From: Candidatus Parcubacteria bacterium
Lineage (GTDB): Bacteria > Patescibacteriota > Minisyncoccia > UBA6257 > 2-01-FULL-56-20
Direction of reading: 5' to 3'
NCBI GenBank assembly: GCA_027450205.1
Contig: DAIDJL010000002.1
Coordinates: 7,870-71,869 of the forward strand
Length of the DNA stretch: 64,000 nt
Shown: positions 3,346-48,731 of the stretch, piece after piece
Position numbering within the stretch: position 1 is the stretch's first letter
Layout: every line of letters starts with the position of its first letter
The notes under the pieces: generated by a model
The model's database searches: none
What the model saw: the letters and a program-made list of their open reading frames with translations, nothing else
What the model was told of the DNA's origin: nothing
Made by a program: the position numbers and the translations under genes

Positions 3346-5130
3346 TTACGCTTCCCCTCCGGGAAGCTTGCTCAACTCAGCAAGCGCGGCTTCGAGCTCG
3401 GACTGATTGCCACGCGCTTCGGCGTTGCGTACCGCGAGCGAGAGGATCTTGCGCCGCTCTTTATAATATTCCCTCGCAAGGCCGTCTTTTATTACCGCGA
3501 TGTCCTTGTCGGAAAGTTCGCTCGCGGCGGTCGGATCGCGAAGCACAATAAGGTTCACGATAGCGTCGAGTGTGGCGTCGTCACTCCTGCGCTCGCCGCG
3601 CTTTAATAGAGCGAAGATCTCTTTTTGCGCGGGAGTAAAGAATGCGACACAGTCCTCTATGAATGCGAAGTCATTGCGCGCGAGCGCGATGGCGAAGAGG
3701 TCCTCTGCTATAAGCTCCTGGCGCGAAACCTGGCGTTTGGGAGCCTGCTCGTCCTGTCCGGCCATATTGTTCGTGGTGGAGGGAGTTGGCGCTGCGTATT
3801 GTGTGGCCGCCGACTTCTCTCCCTCGTCCTTGAGCGTCGCTTCATCAACCCCCGTGCGCTTGGCAAGTTCCTTCATCCAGAAATCCCGTTCCACCGGACT
3901 CGCGATATTCCGCAGCTTTAATAACACCGTACGCAATTTACCGAGACCCTCGCGCGTCGTGAATGCGGCGGGGTCAGACGACGTTGCGCCCGGCGCGAGC
4001 GGCGGCAGATATTTTTCAAAATAGAAAACCGGCGCCGTCACCGCCGCGGCCACTGTCGTGCGTACATTCTCCGGATCCGCTTTCGCCGCATCCGCCGCAT
4101 CCTTGAAACCACGATACGTCGCCACCTTCACCGAAAAATCATTCGCTTCAGCGAGGTCGATCGCGCGCTCGGCGGCGTCGGAGCCGGCAATGTCCGAGTC
4201 AAAACATAAAATGACCTCGTCCGCCAGGCGCCGCACGGAACGCAGGTGGTCGGCGGTGAGCGCGGTACCCGATGACGCGATCACATTGCGCACGCCGCTC
4301 TGGTAGCTCATCAAAAAATCCATCTGGCCCTCCACGAGCACGGCGGTCTTCACCTCGCGGATCGCGTCCCTGCTCTTCCAAAACCCGTAGAGCAGGCGCG
4401 ACTTCTGGAAGATCGGCGTCTCCGGACTGTTCACGTATTTTGCGGTCACGTACGCAGCCTTCGGATCGTTCGACGTATCGAACTGCGGAAGAATGCGGCC
4501 AGTGAAGCCGACCACCTTGCCAAGATGGTTGTGGATCGGGAACATGACGCGGCCGCGGAACCGGTCGAGCATCATCCCCCGCTCCGTCTTTATGGACAGG
4601 CCGGCCTGCAGGAGGTCCTGTGGCGCGGCGCCACCGTTCAAAAGATGCATTGAAAGATCCTCCGGTTCGTTCGCCGCCCAGCCAAGCTCGAACTCCTCTA
4701 TGGTGGCCGGCGTAAGCCCGCGCTCCGCCAGATATTGCTTGACGATCGGCGCCGCCGAGAGCGCCTTCACGTAAAAATTTTTTGCCGAAGCGTTCAGATC
4801 GTAAAGCAATCCGGTATAGCGGTATTCGGCGGGATTCTCGTGCCGCAGTTCGACTCCCGCTTTTTCCGCGAGCATGCGCAAAGCCTCGCCGAATTCCATA
4901 TTCTCGTACTTCATCACAAAACCGAAAATGTCGCCGTCCGCGCCGCAGCCGAAACAGTGGAACCGCTGGCGCTCGGGCGAAATGCTGAACGACGGCGATT
5001 TCTCATGGTGGAACGGACAGAGCGCTTTGAAATTCTTGCCCGCGGGCGTGAGCGTCAGATACCCGCGGAGAAAGTCCACGATATCAAGCTTGCTCTTTAT
5101 AAGTTCGGCGGTGGATGATGGCATGGTCAC
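3346..5130 (-). CDS. dnaG: DNA primase
   Basis: Zinc finger CPFHHEKSPSF...CFGCGADGD and a TOPRIM region (VLVEGQMDFL...CFDSD). Confidence 0.9.
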   Translation of the reverse strand: MTMPSSTAELIKSKLDIVDFLRGYLTLTPAGKNFKALCPFHHEKSPSFSISPERQRFHCFGCGADGDIFGFVMKYENMEFGEALRMLAEKAGVELRHENPAEYRYTGLLYDLNASAKNFYVKALSAAPIVKQYLAERGLTPATIEEFELGWAANEPEDLSMHLLNGGAAPQDLLQAGLSIKTERGMMLDRFRGRVMFPIHNHLGKVVGFTGRILPQFDTSNDPKAAYVTAKYVNSPETPIFQKSRLLYGFWKSRDAIREVKTAVLVEGQMDFLMSYQSGVRNVIASSGTALTADHLRSVRRLADEVILCFDSDIAGSDAAERAIDLAEANDFSVKVATYRGFKDAADAAKADPENVRTTVAAAVTAPVFYFEKYLPPLAPGATSSDPAAFTTREGLGKLRTVLLKLRNIASPVERDFWMKELAKRTGVDEATLKDEGEKSAATQYAAPTPSTTNNMAGQDEQAPKRQVSRQELIAEDLFAIALARNDFAFIEDCVAFFTPAQKEIFALLKRGERRSDDATLDAIVNLIVLRDPTAASELSDKDIAVIKDGLAREYYKERRKILSLAVRNAEARGNQSELEAALAELSKLPGGEA

Positions 5131-6380: not shown

Positions 6381-9300
6381 TTACTCGCCCGTGTCCACCT
6401 TCAATGCCGGAACCGGCAGATTGAGCGGAGGGCACATGATGAGATTGATCCACCGCTGCGTCGTTTGATAGACGTAACTCGTTGGAGTGAATTGCGTCGG
6501 GAGCCCCAATGGGAGCCACGGCGCAAGCACTTCAGTGTGGTATTTCACCTGGAATTGGTTCACCGCCGCGATCGTCTGATCGCCGTAATAACCTGTGATC
6601 GGCAAGTGCAGTCCAAGATTCTGGTTAAGGAATATTTGGAGCTTCTTTACCTGTGCCGGATCGTTCAGGTCTTTGCGGATCGGGTGGATGTAAGAAGTGA
6701 GATACAGTCCGCAGCTTGCGCCGAGAACCTGGCCCGTACTCGTGCTTGCGCCGAGAACCTGGCCCCCACCACCTCCTCCGCCGCCGCCGCCACCACCGCC
6801 GCCGCCGACATTAATGGTCACGCTCGAGGAATTGTTTCCGGAAAGCGGATCAACTACGGTCGGCGATTCGTGCACCGTAGCGGTGTTTGTGATCGCTGTC
6901 CCGTTCGCCGCGGTAACTGTTGCGGTGATCGTGAGCGTGGCACTCGTGCCATTGTTCATCGTACCGATCGTCCAGATCCCCGTCGAGCTCGCGTAGGAGC
7001 CTTCCGACGAAGTTGCTGAAACGAAGGTGACGCCCGAGGGCAGAGTGTCATCCGCCACCACGCCGAACGATGCTGACGGGCCGGCTGCGGTCACGGTCAA
7101 TGTGTAATGGATGGTGCTGCCCGATGCCGGGTTCGCGTTGTCCACCGTTTTCACAATGCCGATCTCCGCGCTCGGCGTATTACCGCCGCCGCCACCCCCG
7201 CCGCCGCAATTGCTGGTACAAGGTGCGGCCTGGACATTGAGCGTCACCGACGAACTGTTGTTCGCGGGATTCGGATCAATGACCGATGCGAGCGTCGAGG
7301 AAACGGTCGCGGTATTCGTGATCACGGTACCCGCCGGAGCGGAAACCTCTGCCGCGATGGTCAACGTTGCCGTTGCGTTCGGAGCAAGGGCGCCGATCGT
7401 CCATACGCCGGTACCGAGATTATAGCTCGTGCTTGCGGTCGTCGTCGCCGCGATCGTTGCCAGTCCCGCCGGCATCTGATCGAGCGCGCTGATCATGGAA
7501 TCCGTCGCGGGGCCGTTATTGGTCACAACAATGGTGAAGTTCACATTGCTGCCCGTCACCGGGTTCGCATTGTCCACCGTTTTTACGATGGCCAGATCTG
7601 CCTGGTTCGATGACGAAGCATTGCCGACCACGGTCGTTGCTTGCGCAATATTATTCGCCGTGTTCGTATCCGTCAGAGTCGATGACTCGCCGATGGTCGC
7701 CTGGTTCGTGATCGTGGTGCCGGCAGTGCCTGTCGCATTCACGGTCGCGGCGATCTGCAGGGTTGCAGTCGCGTTCGGCGCAAGGGTGCCGATCGTCCAG
7801 GTTCCCGTCGTGCTGTCATACGTCGTACTGGCCGATGTGGTCGCATTCACGAACGTAAGTCCGGAAGGCAACGTGTCGGTTGCAACGACGCCGGTCGAAG
7901 GCTGAGGGCCGAACGCCTTCGCAGTGATCGTGTAATGGAGCATATCGCCCGGAAGGGTTGACGTTGCATCCACGGTCTTCGTGATGGCGATGTCGGCATC
8001 ATTGCCGCCGCCTCCGCCGCCCTGCACCGTGATCGGAACAGTCGAGGAATTATTCCCTGGGTTGTTATCGATCGTGCTGGTGGATTCGGAAACGGTGCCG
8101 GTGTTATAGATGGTGGTCCCGGCCGTGCCGGAATTCACCGTCGCTGCGATTTTCAAGGTTGCGGTCGAGCTTGCGCTCATGTCGCCGATCGTCCAGATCC
8201 CCGTCGAGCTCGCATAGGAGCCTTCCGACGAAGTTGCTGAAACGAAGGTGACGCCCGAGGGCAAGGTATCGCTCGCCACGACGCCGGTCGAGGTCGCGGG
8301 GCCGAGTGCGGCAACCGTCAACGTGTAATTGACCGTATCACCGACGCTCGGATTCGCGTTATCAACCGTTTTCGTAATGGAGATGTCCGCCGAAGGAACC
8401 GTGGTGGTCGCCGTCGGCACGTTCCACGCCACGCAATAATATGTGCCGCCCGCCGCCGGCGAGACAACCCGATCATAATTGTCGTAGTTGAGCACGTCGG
8501 TATGGCAGAACATTTCAGCGCTCGTGGTGCTGTTCACCGCATGTCCCGGATAGAAACTGAAAGGGATATATCCGGATTGCAGATCCTCGCGCACCCAGAA
8601 ATTCGAGGTGCTGGTCGGATTCGCGATCTGGACGGTCGCCTGTCCGTTGCTATTGGTCGGGCCGAAGGTATTCCATCCGGTGGAGGTCGGCGCGCTGCCG
8701 ATAAAATCGCCTCCAACGTTCGGGTCGGCCACGGACGAATTGCCCCACTGGAACTGCCATCCTGACGCCACGTGGCATTCGGGATGCGCCGCAATGAAGT
8801 TCGCCGCCGTGCTTGAGGTGATGACCGCTCCCGTGCCGGAAAGGTACGGAAGGTCGGACACGCTCGGACAAACGATCTTTGTCGCAACGATGGTCGCCGA
8901 CGGTGTCGATGTCGGCACGGTCTGCACGAAGATCGAGACGCTCGAACTGTTGTTCGCGAGGTTTGGATCGGTCGTGCTGGCGGATTCGCCGACGGTCGCG
9001 GTGTTCGTGATGGTGGTCCCGGCCGTGCCGGAGTTCACCGTCGCTGCGATTTTCAAGGTCGCGGTCGAGCTTGCGCTCATGTCGCCGATCGTCCAGATCC
9101 CCGTCGAGCTCGCGTAGGAGCCTTCCGACGAAGTTGCTGAAACGAAGGTGACGCCCGAGGGCAAGGTATCGCTCGCCACGACGCCGGTCGAGGTCGCGGG
9201 GCCGAGTGCGACAACCGCGACGGTGTAATGCACGGTCGCGCCTTCGGTCGTCGACGTCACGTCAGCGGTCTTGCTGATCGAGAGGTCGGCGGACTGAGGC

Positions 9301-21889: not shown

Positions 21890-21921
21890 GGTGCTTATAT
21901 TGGTATCTTATCACCTCGCAC

Positions 21922-21982
21922 AAAAAAAGCAGCCTTATCGCCGAACGGTCATCTGCCTGGAGGCGATAAGGCTGCTTTTTTT
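21922..21982. terminator. Long palindromic hairpin (aaaaaaagcagccttatcgcc ...loop... ggcgataaggctgcttttttt) between rluA and tRNA-Ile.
   Basis: About 20-bp perfect arms with a T7/A7 run on each side. Confidence 0.55.
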
Positions 21983-21983
21983 G

Positions 21984-22055
21984 TGCGCGTACTTGGAATC
22001 GAACCAAGGACCTTTTCATTATCAGTGAAATGCTCTACCACTGAGCTACACGCGC
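21984..22055 (-). tRNA. tRNA-Ile(GAT), no encoded CCA.
   Basis: Hand-folded reverse complement: gcgcgtgtagctcagtggtagagc...ctGATaa...ggttcgattcc...tacgcgca. Confidence 0.8.
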
Positions 22056-30377: not shown

Positions 30378-30463
30378 GCCCGGGTGGCGGAATGGCAGAC
30401 GCAATGGACTCAAAATCCATCGATCGCAAGGTCATGAGGGTTCGACTCCCTCCTCGGGCACCA
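30378..30463 (+). tRNA. tRNA-Leu(CAA), CCA encoded, long variable arm.
   Basis: Hand-folded. Acceptor gcccggg/ctcgggc; anticodon loop ctCAAaa; T-arm gaggg-ttcgact-ccctc. Confidence 0.85.
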
Positions 30464-30464
30464 T

Positions 30465-30499
30465 AAACAAAAGAAGCGTCTTGGACGCTTCTTTTGTTT
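30465..30499 (+). terminator. Perfect hairpin terminator (aaacaaaagaagcgtc-ttgg-acgcttcttttgttt).
   Basis: 16-bp stem plus a T-rich tail right after the tRNA. Confidence 0.6.
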
Positions 30500-30510
30500 G
30501 CTCGTTCTTA

Positions 30511-30628
30511 GAGGGAGTCGAACGCCGGAGCCAATTTTTTTAGCAGAAAAAATGGCGAGGCGGTGCCCAGACCAAATGCGAGCGACGGCGAGCATTTGAG
30601 TCGCGGGCGACTTCCTCCTCGGGCACCA
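30511..30628. repeat. tRNA-Leu(CAA) fragments: an inverted copy of the T-arm (gagggagtcgaac) and a direct 21/20-nt copy of the tRNA 3' end (cgacttcctcctcgggcacca).
   Basis: 30608-30628 matches tRNA positions 30443-30463 with 1 mismatch. 30511-30523 is the reverse complement of the T-arm. Confidence 0.7.
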
Positions 30629-30632
30629 CGCG

Positions 30633-30992
30633 TTACTTTCTCGTTCGCCTGCCAAAAACGAATTTTTGCGAAGCGCTCAACGGCTTATCTTTCCGATGGA
30701 TGCAGCCTGCCCAGCAGCAGGGACGGCGCATGCCCTCTTTCAGCTCCGAACATACCCGCTCAACATGTTCCCGCCGCGTCTCCGCTTGCTTGACCGAGGT
30801 GGTCCAGCAGATCCACTCGTTGCGCGCGAGCGGCGTAATATCCTCCCATTTTGCCAGAGCTTTGGGGTCGGACGTAAGCGCTTTTTTTAGGTCTGCCGGC
30901 AAGGCGTGGGCCACGCCGCCGGAAATTTTTTTTGCCATAACGATCGGAGTGACAATAAAGCGTTTTATATCTCCATTCTCCACGCGGCCCAC
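30633..30992 (-). CDS. YdeI/OmpD-associated family protein (DUF1801-like)
   Basis: WICWTTSVKQAETRREHVER motif. Overlaps the ilvE 3' end by about 28 nt. Confidence 0.5.
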   Translation of the reverse strand: MGRVENGDIKRFIVTPIVMAKKISGGVAHALPADLKKALTSDPKALAKWEDITPLARNEWICWTTSVKQAETRREHVERVCSELKEGMRRPCCWAGCIHRKDKPLSASQKFVFGRRTRK

Positions 30993-34849: not shown

Positions 34850-34939
34850 GGAGGCGTGCCAGAGTGGCCGAATGGAGCTTCCTGCTAAGAAGTTGACCGG
34901 GAAACCGGTCCGAAGGTTCGAATCCTTCCGCCTCCGCCA
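34850..34939 (+). tRNA. tRNA-Ser(GCT), CCA encoded.
   Basis: ggaggcgtgccagagtggccgaatgg...ctGCTaa...long variable arm...ggttcgaatccttccgcctccgcca. Confidence 0.85.
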
Positions 34940-34941
34940 GC

Positions 34942-34971
34942 AAAATCGGATACCAAATGGTATCCGATTTT
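34942..34971 (+). terminator. Perfect hairpin (aaaatcggatacc-aaat-ggtatccgatttt) after tRNA-Ser.
   Basis: 13-bp stem flanked by T. Confidence 0.55.
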
Positions 34972-35091
34972 GGTACTGGGCGGGAGGATAAGAACCCTTT
35001 AGGGTTCGGGAATCGGCAGCGAGGAGAAAATGAGTCAGTTCCGCGGATTCATTTTCTGACGAGCGAACCGATTCGGCAGATTCTTATCCGC

Positions 35092-35110
35092 CCATCCTTC
35101 CGCCTCCGCC
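35092..35110. repeat. Direct copy of the tRNA-Ser(GCT) 3' end (atccttccgcctccgcc) 172 bp downstream of the tRNA. It marks the start of the proximal ~300-bp repeat.
   Basis: The 17-mer is identical to tRNA positions 34922-34938. Confidence 0.75.
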
Positions 35111-35156
35111 CGTTAGTGCATCGGTTCGAGAGACCTTGAACAAAAAGACCGCCGAG

Positions 35157-35675
35157 TTACGACGGTCTCCGATAATGCAGTAGTACGGTTCCCTTATCGT
35201 TCAATTTCTTGACGGCGGTAAGATGAAAATTCACCGTCGCCTCATTTTTACATTTAAAGATATCCAATCCCTCGCCAAACACAACCGGCTCGATTGTCAG
35301 GTACAAATCATCGATGAGATCATGCTCGAGGAAGTAACTGTATACCTGCGTCCCTCCCAGCAACGCGATAGCGCGGTAGGATTCAAGAATCACTCCGATA
35401 GACGATGGTCCGTCAGCGTTGTAGTAAAGCAGATTGCTGCCCCGCCGTTCAGTATCGTGTACGGTGCGCGTAAAGACGATACAGTTCCGTTTTGATAACG
35501 GCCCCGCTGCCGTTTTGTAAGTGTTATTGCCAATCACGACCGCATCGCTCTTGTCCAAGAGCGAACGGAGAAACGTCTTATCCTCTGGACTCGTCCAGTC
35601 GGTGAAGTGCCCGGAATGCCGGGCGATTTTACCGTCGATCGTCACGGCGACGATGGCGCTGATATTCGGTTTCAT
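35157..35675 (-). CDS. Dihydrofolate reductase family / RibD C-terminal-domain reductase
   Basis: AIVAVTIDGKIARHSGHFTDWTSPEDKTF...AVVIGNNTY pattern of the DHFR-like reductase fold. Its start overlaps the upstream stop (ATGA). Confidence 0.75.
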   Translation of the reverse strand: MKPNISAIVAVTIDGKIARHSGHFTDWTSPEDKTFLRSLLDKSDAVVIGNNTYKTAAGPLSKRNCIVFTRTVHDTERRGSNLLYYNADGPSSIGVILESYRAIALLGGTQVYSYFLEHDLIDDLYLTIEPVVFGEGLDIFKCKNEATVNFHLTAVKKLNDKGTVLLHYRRPS

Positions 35676-36391
35676 TTGAATGCCCTCCAGAGCGGTGCGT
35701 AGAGATCGTTTTTTGGAGCGACCACCGACATCCGATGCGTGTCTTTATTGGTGAAGGTTATAAACTTCGCGCCGCGCAGGATGAGAAGCGGCGTTTGTTC
35801 ATCTCCTTCGCCCATGAGCAGGACTGCCATCGTTGAAAGCCCGTCGACGATATTCTTCGTCGTATGCTTGAGCAAACGCCCGAAGATATCCGGCTCCCCG
35901 CGGTAATCATAGAGCGGCTCCATGCCGTAGAAACCGATGGAGATGCCGAGTGTGCCATGCCGCAACGGGATAATATGACTATCCGTCACCACGACCGCGA
36001 GCTTTTTCAGTTTATATTTCCTTTTCAAATAACTGCGGATTTCCTTTGCAAGCGCCGACGGGCGCCGCGGCCACAAAATATAGTACCCATTGGCATTACT
36101 CTCGTCAATTCCGGCGTTCGCGATGAGCGTGTGGTCTTTGATCGTGAGATAGAGATTCTTCCATGTCTTCAAGTGACTATGGGCGTATCGGTCGGCCTCC
36201 CGCTTGATAAGTCGTTCTTTTAATGCACCAGGTCGTATTTTCACGCATCGCCCCTGATGGATCGCGAGCACTTTCGAAGTGATAAAGATAACGTCACCCT
36301 CACGCAATTGCGGCAGCGATTTATCGAGAACGGAATAAATGTCGTCCTTCGGCGGCAGGATCGCACGCGTTTTTACTGGGATGAACTTCAT
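35672..36391 (-). CDS. CofE-like protein (F420-0:gamma-glutamyl ligase family)
   Basis: GDVIFITSKVLAIHQGR, LIANAGIDESNA and VVTDSH match CofE family signatures. Start taken at MKFIPVK. Confidence 0.75.
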   Translation of the reverse strand: MKFIPVKTRAILPPKDDIYSVLDKSLPQLREGDVIFITSKVLAIHQGRCVKIRPGALKERLIKREADRYAHSHLKTWKNLYLTIKDHTLIANAGIDESNANGYYILWPRRPSALAKEIRSYLKRKYKLKKLAVVVTDSHIIPLRHGTLGISIGFYGMEPLYDYRGEPDIFGRLLKHTTKNIVDGLSTMAVLLMGEGDEQTPLLILRGAKFITFTNKDTHRMSVVAPKNDLYAPLWRAFK

Positions 36392-36446
36392 CCCGTAAGG
36401 ATACAAAAAAGGCCGGAGATAATCCACTCTCCGGCCTTTGCCGATG

Positions 36447-37463
36447 TCACTGCATCGCCTTAAGGACCTTCAGATACATGTCCTCGACAATTTTTTGCTG
36501 CACCTTCCCGGTCTTCACGTAATGATCGAGTCCGGGCGCCGCGTTCACTTCGAGAATCCAGTAGATTGATGGCTTTCCCGTGATGTCGCCGTCCACCATG
36601 AGATCAACGCCGCAAATGCGCAGCCCCATATCCCTCGTAAGACAGACAGCAATCTTCTTAAACCCCGGGTGGATCGCGTCGGTAACGTCCACGGCGTCGC
36701 CGCCGGAGGACAGGTTCGCGTTGTCGAGAAGGTAAACCTTCTGACCTCGCGCGAGGACAGAACGCATGCTCAACCTTTGCCGCTTGAGATTGTATGCAAT
36801 CCGTTTATCCTCGGCCCTGATGATGGTATCGCGGCCGCTTACAGCGAATCCCTTCTGTTTTTCCGTGAGCAGCTGGCGGATCGTCGACCGACCGTCGCCG
36901 ATCACGTTCAGCGGAACCCGTTCATACGCCGAGATTACCTTCCTGTCGAGTACGACAATCCGATAATCTCTGCCATGAATGGGCGACTGCACGAGCGCCA
37001 CCCTGTCGCGGGCAAACACGAAGCGCATTGCTTGATAAAACTCTCGCTTGGTGTACGCCTTTGCCATGCCGACGCCTTGGCTGCCGCTGTTGGGCTTCAC
37101 GACAACCGGAAAGCCGATCTTCGCCGCATACCGATATGCAGCATCAATATTCCTCCGCGATCCTATAGCACGGCAATGCTCTCGCGAAAAAAATGTTTTG
37201 CCCGGCACCGTGGGATAGCCCATCCGCTTCATAAAGAACGCGGCATAGTCCTTGTCCTTCGCGATGTCGGAAGCGCCGACAGGATTGAGATCGAGCGTCG
37301 ATCCCCTAAAGTATCGCTTGCGACCATTTTTAAAAGCAATCTGGCCCACGACGCGCCATTCGGGCTCGATCAGGATGGTCGCCCCGAGCTTGGGAGCGAG
37401 TTTGCGAAATATCTGTCCCAGAAGCGGGCCGACCATTTTTTTCTTTTTCATACGGGTCGCCAT
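36447..37463 (-). CDS. ATP-grasp ligase, RimK/alpha-L-glutamate-ligase-like
   Basis: ATP-grasp motifs (FPVVVKP, YWILEVNAAPG). Confidence 0.75.
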   Translation of the reverse strand: MATRMKKKKMVGPLLGQIFRKLAPKLGATILIEPEWRVVGQIAFKNGRKRYFRGSTLDLNPVGASDIAKDKDYAAFFMKRMGYPTVPGKTFFSREHCRAIGSRRNIDAAYRYAAKIGFPVVVKPNSGSQGVGMAKAYTKREFYQAMRFVFARDRVALVQSPIHGRDYRIVVLDRKVISAYERVPLNVIGDGRSTIRQLLTEKQKGFAVSGRDTIIRAEDKRIAYNLKRQRLSMRSVLARGQKVYLLDNANLSSGGDAVDVTDAIHPGFKKIAVCLTRDMGLRICGVDLMVDGDITGKPSIYWILEVNAAPGLDHYVKTGKVQQKIVEDMYLKVLKAMQ

Positions 37464-37575
37464 TCCTTTCTATTCTATAACGAATGTTGTTTTACTGCTG
37501 GCCAAAATATAACACAGATTGATCAAATATGCAAATGATTTTGCAGCCCCTCCTCTATTGAGGTTCTAAAGTAGT

Positions 37576-37900
37576 CCATCCGCCTCCGCATTAGTTATTC
37601 ATCGATAAAATCAATACTTCTGGAGTATAGGGAAAGAGGACATCAAAAACTTATTCGTTCGAATCCAAATTTTTCTATTAAATATGGAAAAAAGCCGCCA
37701 AGTTATGACGGTCTCTGATAATGCAGCAGTGCGGTTCCCTTCTTGTTCGATTCTTCGATGGCGACAAACAAGGCGGCGGTCCGGTATGGTTCGAGAATCG
37801 CTGCGATGGGCGTTGGTCCGTCGGCGTTGTAATACGCCACGTTGTCGCTCCGAGGCTCCGCGTCTGACACGGAGCGGGCCGCGCGCGCTTCACATTAAGG
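37576..37900 (-). pseudogene. Distal ~300-bp direct repeat: a degenerate tRNA-Ser 3'-end copy (ccatccgcctccgc), then a spacer, then a truncated and internally deleted paralog of the DHFR-like gene 3' end.
   Basis: Minus-strand translation of 37704-37866 gives ...SDNVAYYNADGPTPIAAILEPYRTAA//LFVAIEESNKKGTALLHYQRPS*. The intact gene has GSNLLYYNADGPSSIGVILESYRAIA...TAVKKLNDKGTVLLHYRRPS*. Nucleotide identity is about 85% over ~75 nt at the 3' end. Confidence 0.65.
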
Positions 37901-37945
37901 TCAGATGTTGTAAAATTTTCATATAATCCAATCCTTTCTATATAT

Positions 37946-40393
37946 ATGATGCAATCCAACCAACCCGGAGCGCAGGGCGGCGATTTGAGCAAGCTCCCTC
38001 TGGCAGAAATCGAGCGGATACTGGCATCTTCCCCGAGCGGACTTTCGCAAGCGGAAGCGGAGCGGCGCCTCTCGGAATATGGCCCGAATGAGATCGAGGA
38101 GAAAAAAACAAATCTTTTTATAAAATTCTTTACCTATTTTTGGGGACCGATCCCGTGGATGATCGAAATAGCGGCGATCCTTTCCGCGACCGTACGTCAC
38201 TGGGCCGACTTTTCCATCATTGCGGTCCTTCTTGTTTCAAACGCAACTGTCGGATTTTGGGAAGAATACCAGGCAGGAAATGCGATCGCGGCGCTGAAAG
38301 CGAAACTTGCCGCAATAGCACGCGTTGAGAGAGATGGGCGTTGGGCTACGCTCGCAACGAGATCGATCGTCCCAGGCGATGTCATTCGCATCCGGCTTGG
38401 GGACATCGTTCCCGCAGATGGGCGCCTGCTTGGGAGCGGCGATTCGGTTGAAATCGATCAATCGGCGCTTACCGGCGAATCACTGCCCGTGGAACGAAAC
38501 GCCGGTGACGCAGTCTTCTCGGGGTCCATTATCCGCAGGGGCGAGGCTGACGCTCTTGTTTACGCTACGGGAAGCCGCACATTCTTCGGCAAAACGGCGG
38601 ATCTCGTGCAGAATGCGCGCACGGTTAGCCATTTCCAGCGGGCGGTGCTTAAAATAGGAAATTATCTCATCATCCTTGCGAGCGTGCTTGTTGCGCTCAT
38701 TGTCGTCGTGGCCGTCGCTCGCGGCAACACGCTTACCGACACCTTGGAGTTTGCGCTCATCTTGCTTATCGCGGCAATTCCCGTCGCCATGCCGACAGTG
38801 CTGTCGGTGACGATGGCGATTGGCGCACGCCTGCTTGCGAAGAAAGATGCGATCGTCACGCGGCTTTCTTCGGTCGAGGAATTGGCCGGTATGGATATGC
38901 TCTGCTCGGATAAGACGGGAACCCTTACTGAAAACAAATTAAAGCTGGGCAGTCCATTTACGGTGGGCAGTGCTACTCCGGAAGAACTCATCCTTTACGG
39001 GGCGCTTGCCTCGCGCGCAGAAGACCGGGATCCGATAGATCTCGCGGTGATCAATGGCGTAAGCGACCAGGCGGCACTTGCCGCATATCATATATTGAAA
39101 TTCCTGCCATTCGACGCAGTGCGGAAACGCACCGAGGCCGAAGTCCGCACGCCGGACGGAAAGATATTTTCCGTATCCATGGGTGCTCCGCAAACCATTC
39201 TTGGTATCTCAGATAATAAACAAGAAGTGTTCGACATGGCGGAACGAGCCGTGGAAGAATTTGCGGCGCGGGGATTTCGCTCGCTTGGAGTTGCTCGCGC
39301 GGAAAAAGGAAATGGATGGCTATTCGTGGGGATACTTCCCCTCTTTGATCCCCCTCGGCCGGAGGCGCAGGCAACCGTGAGAGACGCCCAAGCGATGGGC
39401 GTAAAGATCAAGATGATCACCGGAGACCATATCGCCATCGCGCGAGAGACCGCGCACGAACTTGGCTTGGGCGCCGATATCCTTGATGCAAGCGGTTTGG
39501 ACAATAACGGAAAGGAGCCGTCCGCCGCACAAGCAGATGCCATTGAAAAAGCGGATGGATTTGCCCAGGTATTTCCCGAACATAAATTTGAGATCATACG
39601 GGCGCTCCAGGAACGCGGCCACATTGTCGGGATGACGGGCGACGGCGTGAATGACGCGCCGGCCCTCAAGAAGGCCGATTGCGGCATCGCCGTTTTCGGC
39701 GCCACCGATGCGGCGCGCGCAGCCGCTGCGATGGTTCTCCTCACGCCGGGGTTGTCGGTGATCATCGAGGCCATCAAGGAGGGTCGGAGGATCTTCCAGC
39801 GGATGACGAGCTATTCCATTTATCGGATCACGGAGACCATCCGGGTGCTCCTTTTCATGACACTTGCGATCCTAGTGTTCAATTTCTATCCGGTAACCGC
39901 AATTATGATCGTGCTGCTTGCCATTTTGAACGACGGAGCGATACTTTCCATTGCTTACGACAATGCTTCCTTTGATCAGGCGCCGGAGGCTTGGCAGATG
40001 AAGAAAATATTGGGCGTTTCGACGACGCTCGGCGTCGCCGGCGTCGTGGCAACATTCACGCTTTTTTATCTTGCTGAGCAAATATTCCACATGGGCGCAG
40101 GACAAGTTCAAGCGCTTATGTACCTTAAATTGTCCGTTGCGGGCCACCTGACCATTTTTCTTACGCGTACGCGCAAGCGCTTCTGGTCAGACCGACCATC
40201 AAAAATACTGGTCATTGCGGTCTTCGGCACTCAAGCGATCGCAACCCTTATCGCCGTATATGGGATCTTTATGCCTCCGCTCGGATGGGGATGGGCAATC
40301 GTGGTCTGGGTATATGCACTCGCATGGTTTCTCATCAACGATCAGGTAAAACTGCTCGCGTATCGGATATTCGATCCCGTAGCGCGACCATAA
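37946..40393 (+). CDS. P-type ATPase, plasma-membrane H+-ATPase-like (P3A subtype)
   Basis: DKTGTLT, TGDHIAIA, GDGVNDAPALKKAD, 10 TM segments, and an N-terminus like P3A pumps. Confidence 0.85.
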   Translation: MMQSNQPGAQGGDLSKLPLAEIERILASSPSGLSQAEAERRLSEYGPNEIEEKKTNLFIKFFTYFWGPIPWMIEIAAILSATVRHWADFSIIAVLLVSNATVGFWEEYQAGNAIAALKAKLAAIARVERDGRWATLATRSIVPGDVIRIRLGDIVPADGRLLGSGDSVEIDQSALTGESLPVERNAGDAVFSGSIIRRGEADALVYATGSRTFFGKTADLVQNARTVSHFQRAVLKIGNYLIILASVLVALIVVVAVARGNTLTDTLEFALILLIAAIPVAMPTVLSVTMAIGARLLAKKDAIVTRLSSVEELAGMDMLCSDKTGTLTENKLKLGSPFTVGSATPEELILYGALASRAEDRDPIDLAVINGVSDQAALAAYHILKFLPFDAVRKRTEAEVRTPDGKIFSVSMGAPQTILGISDNKQEVFDMAERAVEEFAARGFRSLGVARAEKGNGWLFVGILPLFDPPRPEAQATVRDAQAMGVKIKMITGDHIAIARETAHELGLGADILDASGLDNNGKEPSAAQADAIEKADGFAQVFPEHKFEIIRALQERGHIVGMTGDGVNDAPALKKADCGIAVFGATDAARAAAAMVLLTPGLSVIIEAIKEGRRIFQRMTSYSIYRITETIRVLLFMTLAILVFNFYPVTAIMIVLLAILNDGAILSIAYDNASFDQAPEAWQMKKILGVSTTLGVAGVVATFTLFYLAEQIFHMGAGQVQALMYLKLSVAGHLTIFLTRTRKRFWSDRPSKILVIAVFGTQAIATLIAVYGIFMPPLGWGWAIVVWVYALAWFLINDQVKLLAYRIFDPVARP

Positions 40394-41794: not shown

Positions 41795-42916
41795 TTATAG
41801 CAAAAACGGGGCCCCGCCACGCCAGTCGGCGGCAAATGTTTTCATGAGCCCCGCGATGATGCCCCGGTCTTCCGTAAGAAGGCCAAGCTCCCGATTCTCG
41901 TCAAGCGACCCCTTGGAAAAATTCTCCGAACCGACAAAAGCGCGGGCAAGCATGCTTCCGGCGTCCGCCACGACCATCTTGGCATGGATATAGAGCGGTG
42001 CATCATCCGCATCCGCATAGGTGCGCACGTGCGCACCCGCGGTCACAAGCTCGGCAAAATTCCATTTCCACTGCGACGAACCCGTCATCACCACATATAC
42101 CGCCACGCCACGCCTGGTGGCATCAATGAGCGCCTTCGTCACGTCCATATCCGCCATCTCCTCGTTATATATAGACAAGGACCTGGTTGCACTCCCGATC
42201 AGATCAAGGATCGCCGGTTCCGAGCCCGGGCTCCAAAGAAGGTCGTCGCCGGCATCGTTGGCATTGCCGCCGCGCAAAGCCATCGCCATGTCGGTCGAGC
42301 CGCTCCCCCGCCAGTCTTCTCCGAACGTATCTTCCATCGCGACAACATCACGCCGGTCGGCATCAACGATCCCGAAATCCCTGCCGGTCACGTAATACTT
42401 CGAAACCAGATTGAAGGTCATGATAAGCGCGCGTTCGCCATCAATAACAAGCGATTTTTCATGCGTCAAAGAAAAATATCCCGGCGAGTACCGCACGGGA
42501 ACGCCGTGGGCTTTCAAAAAATCGTATGCCGCCGTATACGCTGTCGGCGGCGACCCTTTATATCCGCCGTTCAAAATAACTCGCACCGCCACGCCGCGCG
42601 CATTATCCGCCGCAAGCGCTGCTTCCACCTGCGCATCATCGAGCTCGTACATCACGAGATCAAGCGATGCCTTCGCGCCGTTGATCATGGCGAGTACCGG
42701 CGCAATGCCATCGTCCGGTTCGGTGACGAGGGAAAGGCTGCCTACCGATGCGGCGTCTCTTTGATGTATATGAAATTTTTGGAAAAAAACGGGTATTCCG
42801 GCGCGAACGAAAATGGCCGCCACAATGAGGCACGATACAGCTGCGACGGCATACTTCCATTTCATCCCTGCATCGTACCATCCGCAGATTAAAGGAAGAT
42901 TAACCATAAACGCCAT
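41795..42916 (-). CDS. Phospholipase D-family protein (two HKD motifs), membrane-anchored
   Basis: HEKSLVIDGERALIMTFN and HAKMVVADAGSMLARAFVGSENFS. Confidence 0.8.
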   Translation of the reverse strand: MAFMVNLPLICGWYDAGMKWKYAVAAVSCLIVAAIFVRAGIPVFFQKFHIHQRDAASVGSLSLVTEPDDGIAPVLAMINGAKASLDLVMYELDDAQVEAALAADNARGVAVRVILNGGYKGSPPTAYTAAYDFLKAHGVPVRYSPGYFSLTHEKSLVIDGERALIMTFNLVSKYYVTGRDFGIVDADRRDVVAMEDTFGEDWRGSGSTDMAMALRGGNANDAGDDLLWSPGSEPAILDLIGSATRSLSIYNEEMADMDVTKALIDATRRGVAVYVVMTGSSQWKWNFAELVTAGAHVRTYADADDAPLYIHAKMVVADAGSMLARAFVGSENFSKGSLDENRELGLLTEDRGIIAGLMKTFAADWRGGAPFLL

Positions 42917-48362: not shown

Positions 48363-48430
48363 ATCTGTTCATTATAACAGATAAGCAAGCCATATTCATG
48401 AGATGATCTCTTTTATATGTAATGTAATAA

Positions 48431-48519
48431 GTAGAAAAAGAACAGACCCTACCTTTTTTGACGGTCACGTTCCTACGTGGCATTTCCGTCAAAAAAGGTA
48501 GGGTCTGTTCTTTTTCTAC
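48431..48519. repeat. 34-bp perfect inverted repeat with a 21-nt loop (the loop is itself palindromic, cacgt..acgtg), overlapping the rpsR stop codon.
   Basis: 48431-48464 is the exact reverse complement of 48486-48519. Confidence 0.9.
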
Positions 48520-48731
48520 TTGCGGACGTACGGAAGCAGTGCCATGAACCTTGCCTGCTTGATCGCAGTAGAAAGCTTGCGCTGATGCTTCGCGCAGATA
48601 TGCGTGTGGCGCGGGTCGATGATCTTTGCCTGGCTCGAAACGAACCGGCGCAAAAGGTCGATCTCCTTGTAGTCGATGTTCTTTAAGTTCTGCGAGCAGA
48701 AAAAGCACTGCTGGGCTGTCGTGGGTGCCAT
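48516..48731 (-). CDS. rpsR: 30S ribosomal protein S18
   Basis: IDYKEIDLLRRFVS...AKHQRKLSTAIKQARFMALLPY matches the S18 consensus. Confidence 0.8.
   Translation of the reverse strand: MAPTTAQQCFFCSQNLKNIDYKEIDLLRRFVSSQAKIIDPRHTHICAKHQRKLSTAIKQARFMALLPYVRK

Follow-up and report, generated by a model that had tools for sequence, protein, structure and literature searches.

We propose that the 3′ flank of the tRNA-Ser(GCT) gene in the 64,000-nt stretch of Candidatus Parcubacteria DNA analysed here (from contig DAIDJL010000002.1, the whole stretch being referred to as the window) is a hot spot of site-specific integration, at which small islets without an integrase, similar to cis-mobilizable elements (CIMEs), have accreted in tandem; we put the probability of this reading at roughly 0.72. 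The tRNA-Ser(GCT) gene itself is intact and the inserts begin at its 3′ end, where three consecutive units follow one another, each starting with a copy of the tRNA end and none containing a recombinase gene. The locus would accordingly hold at least three stacked inserts, namely a 172-nt mini-element, an intact folate-related cassette (cassette A, about 35138-37590) and the wreck of an older cassette (cassette B), the features of which are collected in Table 1. An earlier note, made from the letters of the window, had likened the repeats around this tRNA to the attachment (att) sites of a tRNA-targeted islet, and this idea is supported by the repeats, by the empty, single and stacked states of the site in relatives and by large serine recombinases (LSRs) lying at the same tRNA in other genomes. 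Its view of a direct repeat of ~300 bp as one duplicated att site gives way to a different one, in which each of the two repeats is the left end of a cassette of its own, the two cassettes having been acquired independently.

The tRNA 3′ end does occur three times, as the note had claimed. The 17-mer ATCCTTCCGCCTCCGCC, which forms the final 17 nt of the tRNA (copy 1, 34922-34938, with the A at 34939 completing the encoded CCA), recurs exactly at 35094-35110 (copy 2) and as an ungapped match of 14/17 at 37574-37590 (copy 3); with up to three mismatches allowed, five matches are present in the window where 0.39 would be expected. Copy 3 is real and does not require the 3-nt deletion attributed to it, TCCATCCGCCTCCGC matching at 14 of 15 positions without a gap and the longer alignment containing a 5-nt insertion instead. 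This longer alignment extends copy 3 in the 5′ direction and places 37561-37589 (AGGTTCTAAAGTAGTCCATCCGCCTCCGC) against the T-loop, T-stem and acceptor of the tRNA, with a score that is reached by none of 2000 shuffles and exceeded within the window only by segments that share bases with tRNA-Ser(GCT), with its second copy or with tRNA-Ser(GGA). Copy 3, degenerate over 37561-37590, is the right-end scar of cassette A, and the whole scar is 92.9% identical to positions 3189-3230 of L112 (loci of other genomes carry the prefix L). The tRNA-Ser(GCT) gene was omitted by a whole-window Rfam run at the gathering threshold and was recovered when the sub-region was run, a miss of the speed filter that calls for caution with the other Rfam negatives given below; the order tRNA-Ser(GCT)-IF2-rbfA-tRNACys-tRNALeu is conserved in L006, L008, L100, L101, L105, L108, L112 and L115.

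Relatives were reached through ParA (encoded 4.5 kb from tRNA-Ser(GCT), the ParA proteins being 90-95% identical) and their contigs compared, and three further loci, L006, L008 and L011, came from a metagenome scan with IF2, which was swamped by the universal GTPase motif and gave a best relative of 51% identity. The close relatives have a common frame, consisting of ParA, tRNA-Leu(CAA), an aminotransferase, tRNA-Leu(TAA), tRNA-Cys, rbfA, IF2, tRNA-Ser(GCT), a variable stretch, PLD and Dus. The tRNA of L100 finishes with ...ATCCTTCCGCCTCCGCC and leads directly into CGTTAGTGCATCGGTTCGAGAGACCTT, giving 44 nt that equal window positions 35094-35137 at 100% identity, without the 172-nt insert; the window therefore corresponds to the state of L100 with 172 nt and a duplication of 17 bp added, and copy 2 is, on this comparison, the displaced original tRNA end. 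The register of the insertion (34939-35110 or 34922-35093) is ambiguous because of the 17-bp repeat. No folate cassette is present at tRNA-Ser(GCT) in L108/109/110, L105/106, L100 or L115; the variable stretch of L108/109/110 consists of ICMT and OmdA only, leaving ~1.1 kb between PLD and the tRNA, and that of L100 and L115 holds other small genes. In L105 a 51-aa gene directly follows tRNA-Ser(GCT), and the same gene stands in L089 just outside the right scar of the cassette, an arrangement that we read as a second empty-site comparison. L112 carries exactly one folate cassette at the same tRNA, in the order PLD, a 202-aa gene, cassette and tRNA, with conserved Dus/PLD and IF2 flanks. Its real tRNA-Ser ends in ...CCGCCTCCGCA and is followed by a spacer of ~110 nt and the DHFR, cofE and ATP-grasp genes, while at the far end GGAGGTTCTAAAGTAGTCCATCGCCCTCCGCA, a degenerate copy of the tRNA T-arm and acceptor, gives way to unrelated flank. 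From this order L112 is taken to be the plain integrated state, with its left attachment site (attL) inside the tRNA. Both presence and absence were seen among these relatives, and a fixed synteny without a repeat was not found. As a separate observation, the 27 nt that follow the tRNA end (35111-35137, L100 3965-3991) are the same in the window and in L100 (100% identity) although identity in the region with the tRNA is only ~80%, which suggests either recent exchange or constraint; this flank also holds the T-arm-like GGTTCGAGAGACC.

Comparison with the same relatives resolves the rest of the locus into two cassettes. The earlier note had placed the genes between the repeats; copies 1 and 2 in fact bracket the separate 172-nt mini-element and not the operon, and it is copy 3 that ends the cassette. 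Window and L089 are 88.3% identical over 2.45 kb, a similarity that ends exactly at ...CTCCGCA (window 37590). Further on, the 3′ end of the DHFR-like gene is repeated in two stretches, 35142-35217 against 37688-37763 (82% over 76 nt, E 6e-18) and 35361-35468 against 37769-37876 (68% over 108 nt, E 2e-13), which together with the shuffle result for the scar establishes that the repeat is significant. The 138 nt between the two matching stretches are missing from the second instance in frame (46 codons), and an open frame of 55 codons at 37703-37870 repeats the DHFR 3′ end, so that its description as an in-frame, truncated and internally deleted pseudo-copy was accurate, as were the peptides quoted for it. 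Each downstream tRNA-end copy had also been said to be followed by a homologous spacer. The two window spacers, 31 nt (35111-35141) and 97 nt (37591-37687) long up to the shared DHFR-terminator repeat, show no significant likeness beyond the terminator when compared directly, and it is through the relatives that the claim is partly rescued: the short form of L100 shares both of its ends with the long spacer of L112, so the short spacer is the long one with an internal deletion. The long spacer aligns to that of L089 with a score of 107, reached by none of 2000 shuffles, and the L112 tRNA end plus spacer also aligns. Because an L112/L089-type spacer is here followed by a pseudo-DHFR with its own terminator, 37574-37878 represents the tRNA-proximal (attL-side) end of a second cassette. 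The long spacer was also compared with a decayed OmdA 3′ end and other native flank, and these candidates were rejected for lack of significance.

The collinearity of the units (tRNA-end copy, spacer, DHFR terminator, DHFR 3′ end), together with the absence of a recombinase from the window, would also fit a local tandem duplication, in which the stretch reaching from the tRNA end across the operon was doubled in place and the distal copy decayed. We consider this highly improbable on account of where the two DHFR copies come from. Across a common set of 213 columns the pseudo-DHFR is 77.9% identical to L089 and 73.2% to L086, as against 68.1% to the intact copy, 2.5 kb distant in the window, which is itself ~78% identical to L089, L086 and L096. 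As the pseudo-copy is nearer to L089 than to the intact copy, the two belong to different branches of the cassette family and reflect two acquisitions rather than a local duplication, and the junction duplication that the earlier note had offered as its alternative is disfavoured by the same figures. Furthermore, the 112-nt spacer of the pseudo-copy is homologous to the L089 and L112 spacers and not to the window's short spacer, and the single-cassette state of L112 already has a distal tRNA-end scar, so that no duplication is needed to produce one.

A homologous exchange between strains, in which unequal crossover through the tRNA, the spacer or the DHFR terminator created tandem alleles of which one decayed, has somewhat more to recommend it, and we regard it as unlikely. 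Donors with homologous flanks exist, the cassette being found at the same tRNA in L112 and, judged by its flanks, in L089; the GC content is unremarkable; and the junction at 35137/35138 does not lie at the tRNA end. Against such an exchange, the homology with L089 and L112 halts exactly at the right-end ...CTCCGCA motif, the right scar is joined precisely to an old attL-type spacer as would be expected of recombination between two att sites and not of a crossover somewhere in a homologous stretch, and the cassette is present in unrelated flanks in L086/L087, L096 and L001.

The order of events that most reasonably fits integration at the tRNA end would begin with an L112-like ancestor bearing a single cassette (spacer, DHFR-like gene, cofE-like gene, ATP-grasp gene, promoter and pseudo-T-arm scar), with attL in the tRNA and the crossover presumably in its T-loop/acceptor part. 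A second cassette, from another lineage of the family, would then have recombined into the tRNA-proximal att site and pushed the resident outward, the product being the newcomer's right scar (37549-37590) joined to the spacer of the old cassette (37591 onward). The older cassette, now redundant, would have been reduced to its spacer and two pieces of the DHFR gene, with a segment encoding a P-type ATPase abutting the break. Finally, the 172-nt mini-element would have entered the tRNA 3′ end, duplicating 17 bp, supplying the A of the CCA and a hairpin, and moving the original end to 35094-35110. Throughout, the recombinase would have acted in trans.

Several observations weigh against this account. 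No serine or tyrosine recombinase is encoded in the window, the best hit of tblastn searches with the L008 LSR and the L006 tyrosine recombinase having E = 0.9 and an open reading frame (ORF) survey finding none, as the earlier note had also noticed; the called ORFs of the locus region carry other domains. The GC profile of the locus is without anomaly or foreign signature. On its left side the intact cassette is joined at 35137/35138, within a terminator-like hairpin of L100 and not at the tRNA end, so that one junction at the least has the look of a deletion or an illegitimate break instead of a clean crossover between att sites. The scar at the right end is considerably diverged from the tRNA (5-nt insertion and mismatches), and is either old or derived from the element. 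Lastly, on the far sides of the LSR islands of L008 and L101 the tRNA end is not repeated in direct orientation, whether over 11 nt or more or over 17 nt at up to three mismatches; as the L101 island near tRNA-Leu(CAA) shows no long tRNA-end repeat, a part of these LSRs in making 17-bp repeats is putative.

The LSRs at the same tRNA in sister genomes are nevertheless the likely best candidates for a recombinase acting in trans, on circumstantial grounds. L101 has LSRs with Resolvase, Recombinase and Zn_ribbon_recom domains, one directly against tRNA-Ser(GCT) and another within the variable stretch that follows downstream of tRNA-Leu(CAA), and these are the two tRNAs that bear mini-elements in the window. 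LSRs of this domain make-up also adjoin tRNA-Ser(GCT) and tRNA-Ser(TGA) in L008 and tRNA-Leu(TAA) in L011. The LSR frames next to tRNA-Ser(GCT) (L008 41-1420; L101 362-2533) run antisense through the tRNA gene without a stop, and the att site may be part of the recombinase gene's 3′ end, such that integration alters the C-terminus of the protein. Two further genes were seen near this tRNA in the distant relative L006: one for a XerC/D-like tyrosine recombinase (3594-4502), 2.3 kb beyond the 3′ side of tRNA-Ser(GCT), and a 334-aa ORF with LAGLIDADG-like motifs (6907-7911) between tRNA-Ser(GCT) and IF2.

The 172-nt unit consists, in order, of the A of the CCA, a perfect 15-bp hairpin (34941-34972), an inverted stretch that copies the tRNA 3′ end imperfectly (34978-34997), a core of several hairpins and the direct copy, 35094-35110. 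It folds strongly, with z = -7.4 for 34940-35115 and z = -4.9 for 34975-35113, where the first hairpin is left out. BLAST found no other copy of it in the window or in the relatives' loci, and in Rfam only tRNAs reach threshold, with nothing credible at 34940-35140 or 30464-30640. The 155 nt between copies 1 and 2 were also considered as a third cassette spacer and rejected, the scores being reached by 745 and 58 of 2000 shuffles. A whole-window scan for inverted repeats brought up a second mini-element, of 166 nt, behind tRNA-Leu(CAA). It contains a hairpin (30465-30499), the T-loop and T-stem in inverted copy (30509-30524), a conserved core folding as a three-way junction and a direct copy of the tRNA-Leu 3′ end (30612-30629), and its geometry follows that of the Ser unit, with the inverted copy at +46 as against +42 nt and the direct copy at +149 as against +156 nt. 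Among 56 tRNAs parsed in the window and in a set of loci from other genomes, only these two are followed by both an inverted and a direct copy.

The core of the Leu unit is homologous to sequence just left of the folate-cassette spacer in L089, where it is flanked by arms derived from tRNA-Ser(GCT), and RNAalifold applied to these two sequences gives 39 pairs, eight with compensatory changes and none broken. The family so recognised is defined by covariance models, R1 and R2, and the family model scores the window (30509-30629) at 141 bits, L089 at 137 and the sequence behind tRNA-Leu(CAA) in L112/L113 at 114; a match in the distant L011, 43 nt after tRNA-Ser(TGA), is weak (18.7 bits) and has the same fold and geometry. 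In an alignment of four sequences, which was fitted to the model and hence leans toward the structure, 97.3% of cells form pairs and in 15 of 39 pairs both partners change, values matched by none of 500 shuffles, with 40-47% paired in slid controls. The common architecture comprises a helix P1 made from the inverted and direct copies of the tRNA T-arm, a GCCGGAGC block, two hairpins and a tail that equals the 3′ strand of the tRNA acceptor. The arms, ~80-90 nt apart and located together at the distal end of the insert, pair into a stem of 9-12 bp that reproduces the duplex of the tRNA gene; in L112 both arms read CAC where the tRNA has CCC, so that the arms follow one another and not the tRNA alone. 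On the tRNA-sense strand the fold has the greater stability (-57 as against -47 kcal/mol). One copy of each core is present in the 64 kb of the window and in ~1.2 Mb of loci searched, the family is not found at the same tRNAs in the equally close relatives L100, L101, L105-111 and L115-116, and viral contigs scanned with core patterns gave nothing, or chance matches in GC-rich coding DNA. The Ser unit (34978-35110), run against R2 with filters off, gives no full-length match and only fragments at E above 1, and BLAST likewise finds nothing; it shares the design and geometry of the Leu-type family, but homology to it is not demonstrable.

It is possible, though we lean away from it, that the 172-nt unit is not mobile and represents the stump of a decayed island, or else a small RNA of the host or an attenuator-like structure in the tRNA trailer; a small RNA would also be compatible with mobility. 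Such a role would suit the strong fold, the A, A′, A arrangement in which the inverted copy can pair with either tRNA end, the compensatory changes and better tRNA-sense fold of the core family, and the single copy of each core in 64 kb. It is harder to reconcile with the clean polymorphism between insertion and empty site and its 17-bp duplication, with the absence of the core from the same tRNAs in equally close relatives, or with a homologous core occurring behind different tRNAs with matching arms (Leu-CAA in the window and L112, Ser-GCT arms in L089, Ser-TGA in L011); nor would two independent deletions be expected to leave stumps of the same geometry (+42/+46 and +156/+149 nt). By analogy with known elements, we tentatively suggest that the 166-172-nt units may be previously undescribed, miniature, integrase-less mobile elements specific for tRNA 3′ ends. 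In such an element a hairpin would replace the terminator of the tRNA, and a conserved three-way-junction core would be accompanied by inverted and direct arms copying the T-arm and acceptor of the targeted tRNA, so that a single-stranded fold rebuilds the tRNA duplex and mimics the target for a recombinase acting in trans, or alternatively the inverted arm guides the element to its target. We could not find a described family that the mini-elements match, and a small tRNA-matched element of this kind is apparently undescribed, its mechanism being hypothetical. They could mark or prime sites at which cargo such as the folate cassette or OmdA shuffles between tRNA loci in the Candidate Phyla Radiation (CPR). 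An OmdA-family gene stands beside tRNA-Ser(GCT) in L108/109/110 (L108 4192-4422), L100 (2695-3051) and L115/116 (L115 2311-2619), and in the window (30633-30992) directly after the tRNA-Leu(CAA) mini-element, so this cargo appears to move between tRNA slots.

Judged by analogy, the closest described system to the window cassettes is that of the ssrA islands of Dehalococcoides, which are arranged in tandem, are bounded by 20-bp repeats of the ssrA 3′ end and, when complete, have an LSR on the reverse strand immediately beside attL, with insertion inferred to occur in the T-loop (McMurdie et al. 2011, PMC3146451). Those islands that lack an integration module have been read as cis-mobilizable elements built by accretion (PMC3146451). 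Both systems have tandem inserts after a small-RNA gene, and in L101 and L008 an LSR abuts the tRNA 3′ end on the opposite strand; the differences are that the targets here are tRNA-Ser and tRNA-Leu in Patescibacteria, that the inserts, at 172 nt to ~2.5 kb, are much smaller, with no integration module in the window, and that the cargo consists of folate-related genes and not of reductive dehalogenases. CIMEs of the ICESt1/ICESt3 family (ICEs being integrative and conjugative elements) retain attL and its right-hand counterpart attR, carry no integrase or transfer genes and stand in tandem at the 3′ end of the target gene, such tandems arising when a newcomer integrates into a resident's att site (PMC5704250). 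The window units likewise keep tRNA-end copies, are in tandem and are free of recombinases, but no conjugative partner is known here and mobilisation in cis is putative. We know of no CPR genome carrying ICEs of this family.

For the mini-elements the comparison lies elsewhere. In CTXphi two inverted target-like sites fold, when single-stranded, into a stem that mimics the target, and come to lie together at one end of the insert after integration (PMC3442271). The inverted and direct T-arm copies of the mini-element similarly pair into a target-like stem at its distal end, but, in contrast to CTXphi and to integrative mobile elements exploiting Xer (IMEX), the target here is a tRNA and not dif or attI, there is no link to Xer or IntI, the element is 166-172 nt long and a single-stranded stage would be pure inference. 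Miniature inverted-repeat transposable elements (MITEs) have terminal inverted repeats encoded by the element, a short target duplication and many copies per genome. The mini-elements resemble them in being small, non-coding, strongly folding and polymorphic for presence and absence with a target duplication, and differ in that their arms are the sequence of the target tRNA and vary with it, the duplication is 17-21 bp, insertion is specific to tRNA 3′ ends and one copy per core is present in 64 kb. The attC site of integrons consists of R″ and R′ boxes (RYYYAAC ... GTTRRRY), and integrons also comprise intI, attI and Pc. Neither GTTAGTG after copy 2 nor ATTAGTT after copy 3 fits GTTRRRY, and with neither a RYYYAAC partner nor a tyrosine recombinase attC was rejected. 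A guide of the exon-binding-site (EBS) type of group II introns, a palindrome-associated element (PATE) of the IS200/IS605 type, an IS110 bridge RNA, a homing spacer of a CRISPR-associated transposon (CAST), a tRNA-primed retro-insertion and an integron attC were all considered for the mini-element; the defining partner gene or motif is absent here in each case, and they serve as analogies only.

CPR bacteria (Patescibacteria) have very small genomes, and little is known of how they exchange genes. The locus presents tRNA 3′ ends of the CPR as slots into which small sets of cargo are swapped, from which they are lost and in which they decay, with LSRs as the likely engine. Exchange at tRNA slots is known biology in a new host group; it is of use for annotating metagenome-assembled genomes and bears on how auxotrophic symbionts gain and lose cofactor metabolism. 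Should the mini-elements prove mobile with a folded site that mimics or guides to the target, they would constitute a new type of site-specific element of very small size, which could be reprogrammed by changing ~20 nt.

Table 1. Features of the tRNA-Ser(GCT) locus and of the tRNA-Leu(CAA) mini-element; positions are those of the window.
Feature	Position	Strand	Basis and remarks
Mini-element of 166 nt after tRNA-Leu(CAA) (30378-30463)	30464-30629	+	Whole-window inverted-repeat scan
tRNA-Ser(GCT), integration target	34850-34939	+	ARAGORN; Rfam tRNA 50.9 bits; synteny
Mini-element insertion, 172 nt	34939-35110	+	L100 empty site; equivalent placement 34922-35093
Short spacer	35111-35141	+	35111-35137 equals the flank after the tRNA in L100
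DHFR-like reductase, intact, RibD_C/DHFR_1, 172 aa	35157-35675	-	Pfam
cofE-like gamma-glutamate ligase	35672-36427	-	Best NCBIfam model TIGR04132 ("putative folate metabolism gamma-glutamate ligase"), score under its cut-off
Strong terminator-like hairpin between ATP-grasp and cofE-like genes	36408-36439	-	12-bp GC-rich stem and T-run
ATP-grasp ligase, RimK-like, resembling the ATP-grasp region of cyanophycin synthetase, 338 aa	36447-37463	-	Domain searches
Promoter-like site of the cassette, inside its boundary	37506-37535	-	Region conserved with L089, L087 and L112
Right-end scar of cassette A (repeat copy 3), degenerate tRNA-Ser T-arm and acceptor ending ...CTCCGCA	37549-37590	+	Homology to L089 and L112 stops exactly there
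Long spacer of cassette B, 112 nt	37591-37702	+	Matches sequence right after the real tRNA-Ser in L112 and after the tRNA-end copy in L089
Pseudo-DHFR, remnant of cassette B	37703-37878	-	Own terminator 37695-37711; truncated at ~37878 beside the ATPase promoter
P-type ATPase	37946-40393	+	Promoter-like site 37889-37916; occupies the place expected for the rest of cassette B

The genes of cassette A had been called a three-gene operon, and three genes are indeed present, but a single operon is in doubt. The strong hairpin at 36408-36439 separates the ATP-grasp gene from the cofE-DHFR pair, and there are therefore possibly two transcription units. The hairpin is retained in L086, where the ATP-grasp gene is absent, and this gene is missing or decayed in L086, L088 and L087; the operon may thus be a two-gene core with an optional third gene. 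The stop codon of the intact DHFR-like gene sits within a terminator hairpin (~35142-35170) whose sequence is kept across relatives, and the cofE-like gene probably starts at 36391, given that its homologues have 239 aa. A cofE-DHFR module of 1,840 bp is 99.7% identical in L086 (7080-8919) and L087 (7080-8918), with unrelated flanks, and the folate cassette of L001 adjoins tRNA-Ser(TGA). The module of L086/L087 consists of the cofE-like gene, the DHFR-like gene and a 400-nt tail, which holds a tRNA-like structure, a terminator and a partial duplicate of the 5′ half of the tRNA-like structure; in L086 this structure (8656-8722) matches mascRNA with E 0.0014, and ARAGORN makes no call there. The window's DHFR-like protein has 437 homologues, mostly in Patescibacteria; an exact look-up of its sequence returned no record. 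In L091-L095 proteins 69-76% identical to it are encoded alone, without cofE or ATP-grasp genes, on contigs that look non-CPR (futalosine-pathway genes, PQQ proteins, Ser/Thr kinases), and these contexts suggest that the DHFR-like gene has been transferred across phyla.

The P-type ATPase gene belongs to a variable stretch of 6.9 kb between tRNA-Ser(GCT) and the conserved PLD gene (41795-42916). Elsewhere in the window, two perfect inverted repeats far longer than those of ordinary terminators occur, one of 36 nt with a 21-nt loop at 48429-48521 and one of 26 nt with a 19-nt loop at 21917-21987; the latter shares a few bases with the 3′ end of tRNA-Ile(GAT).

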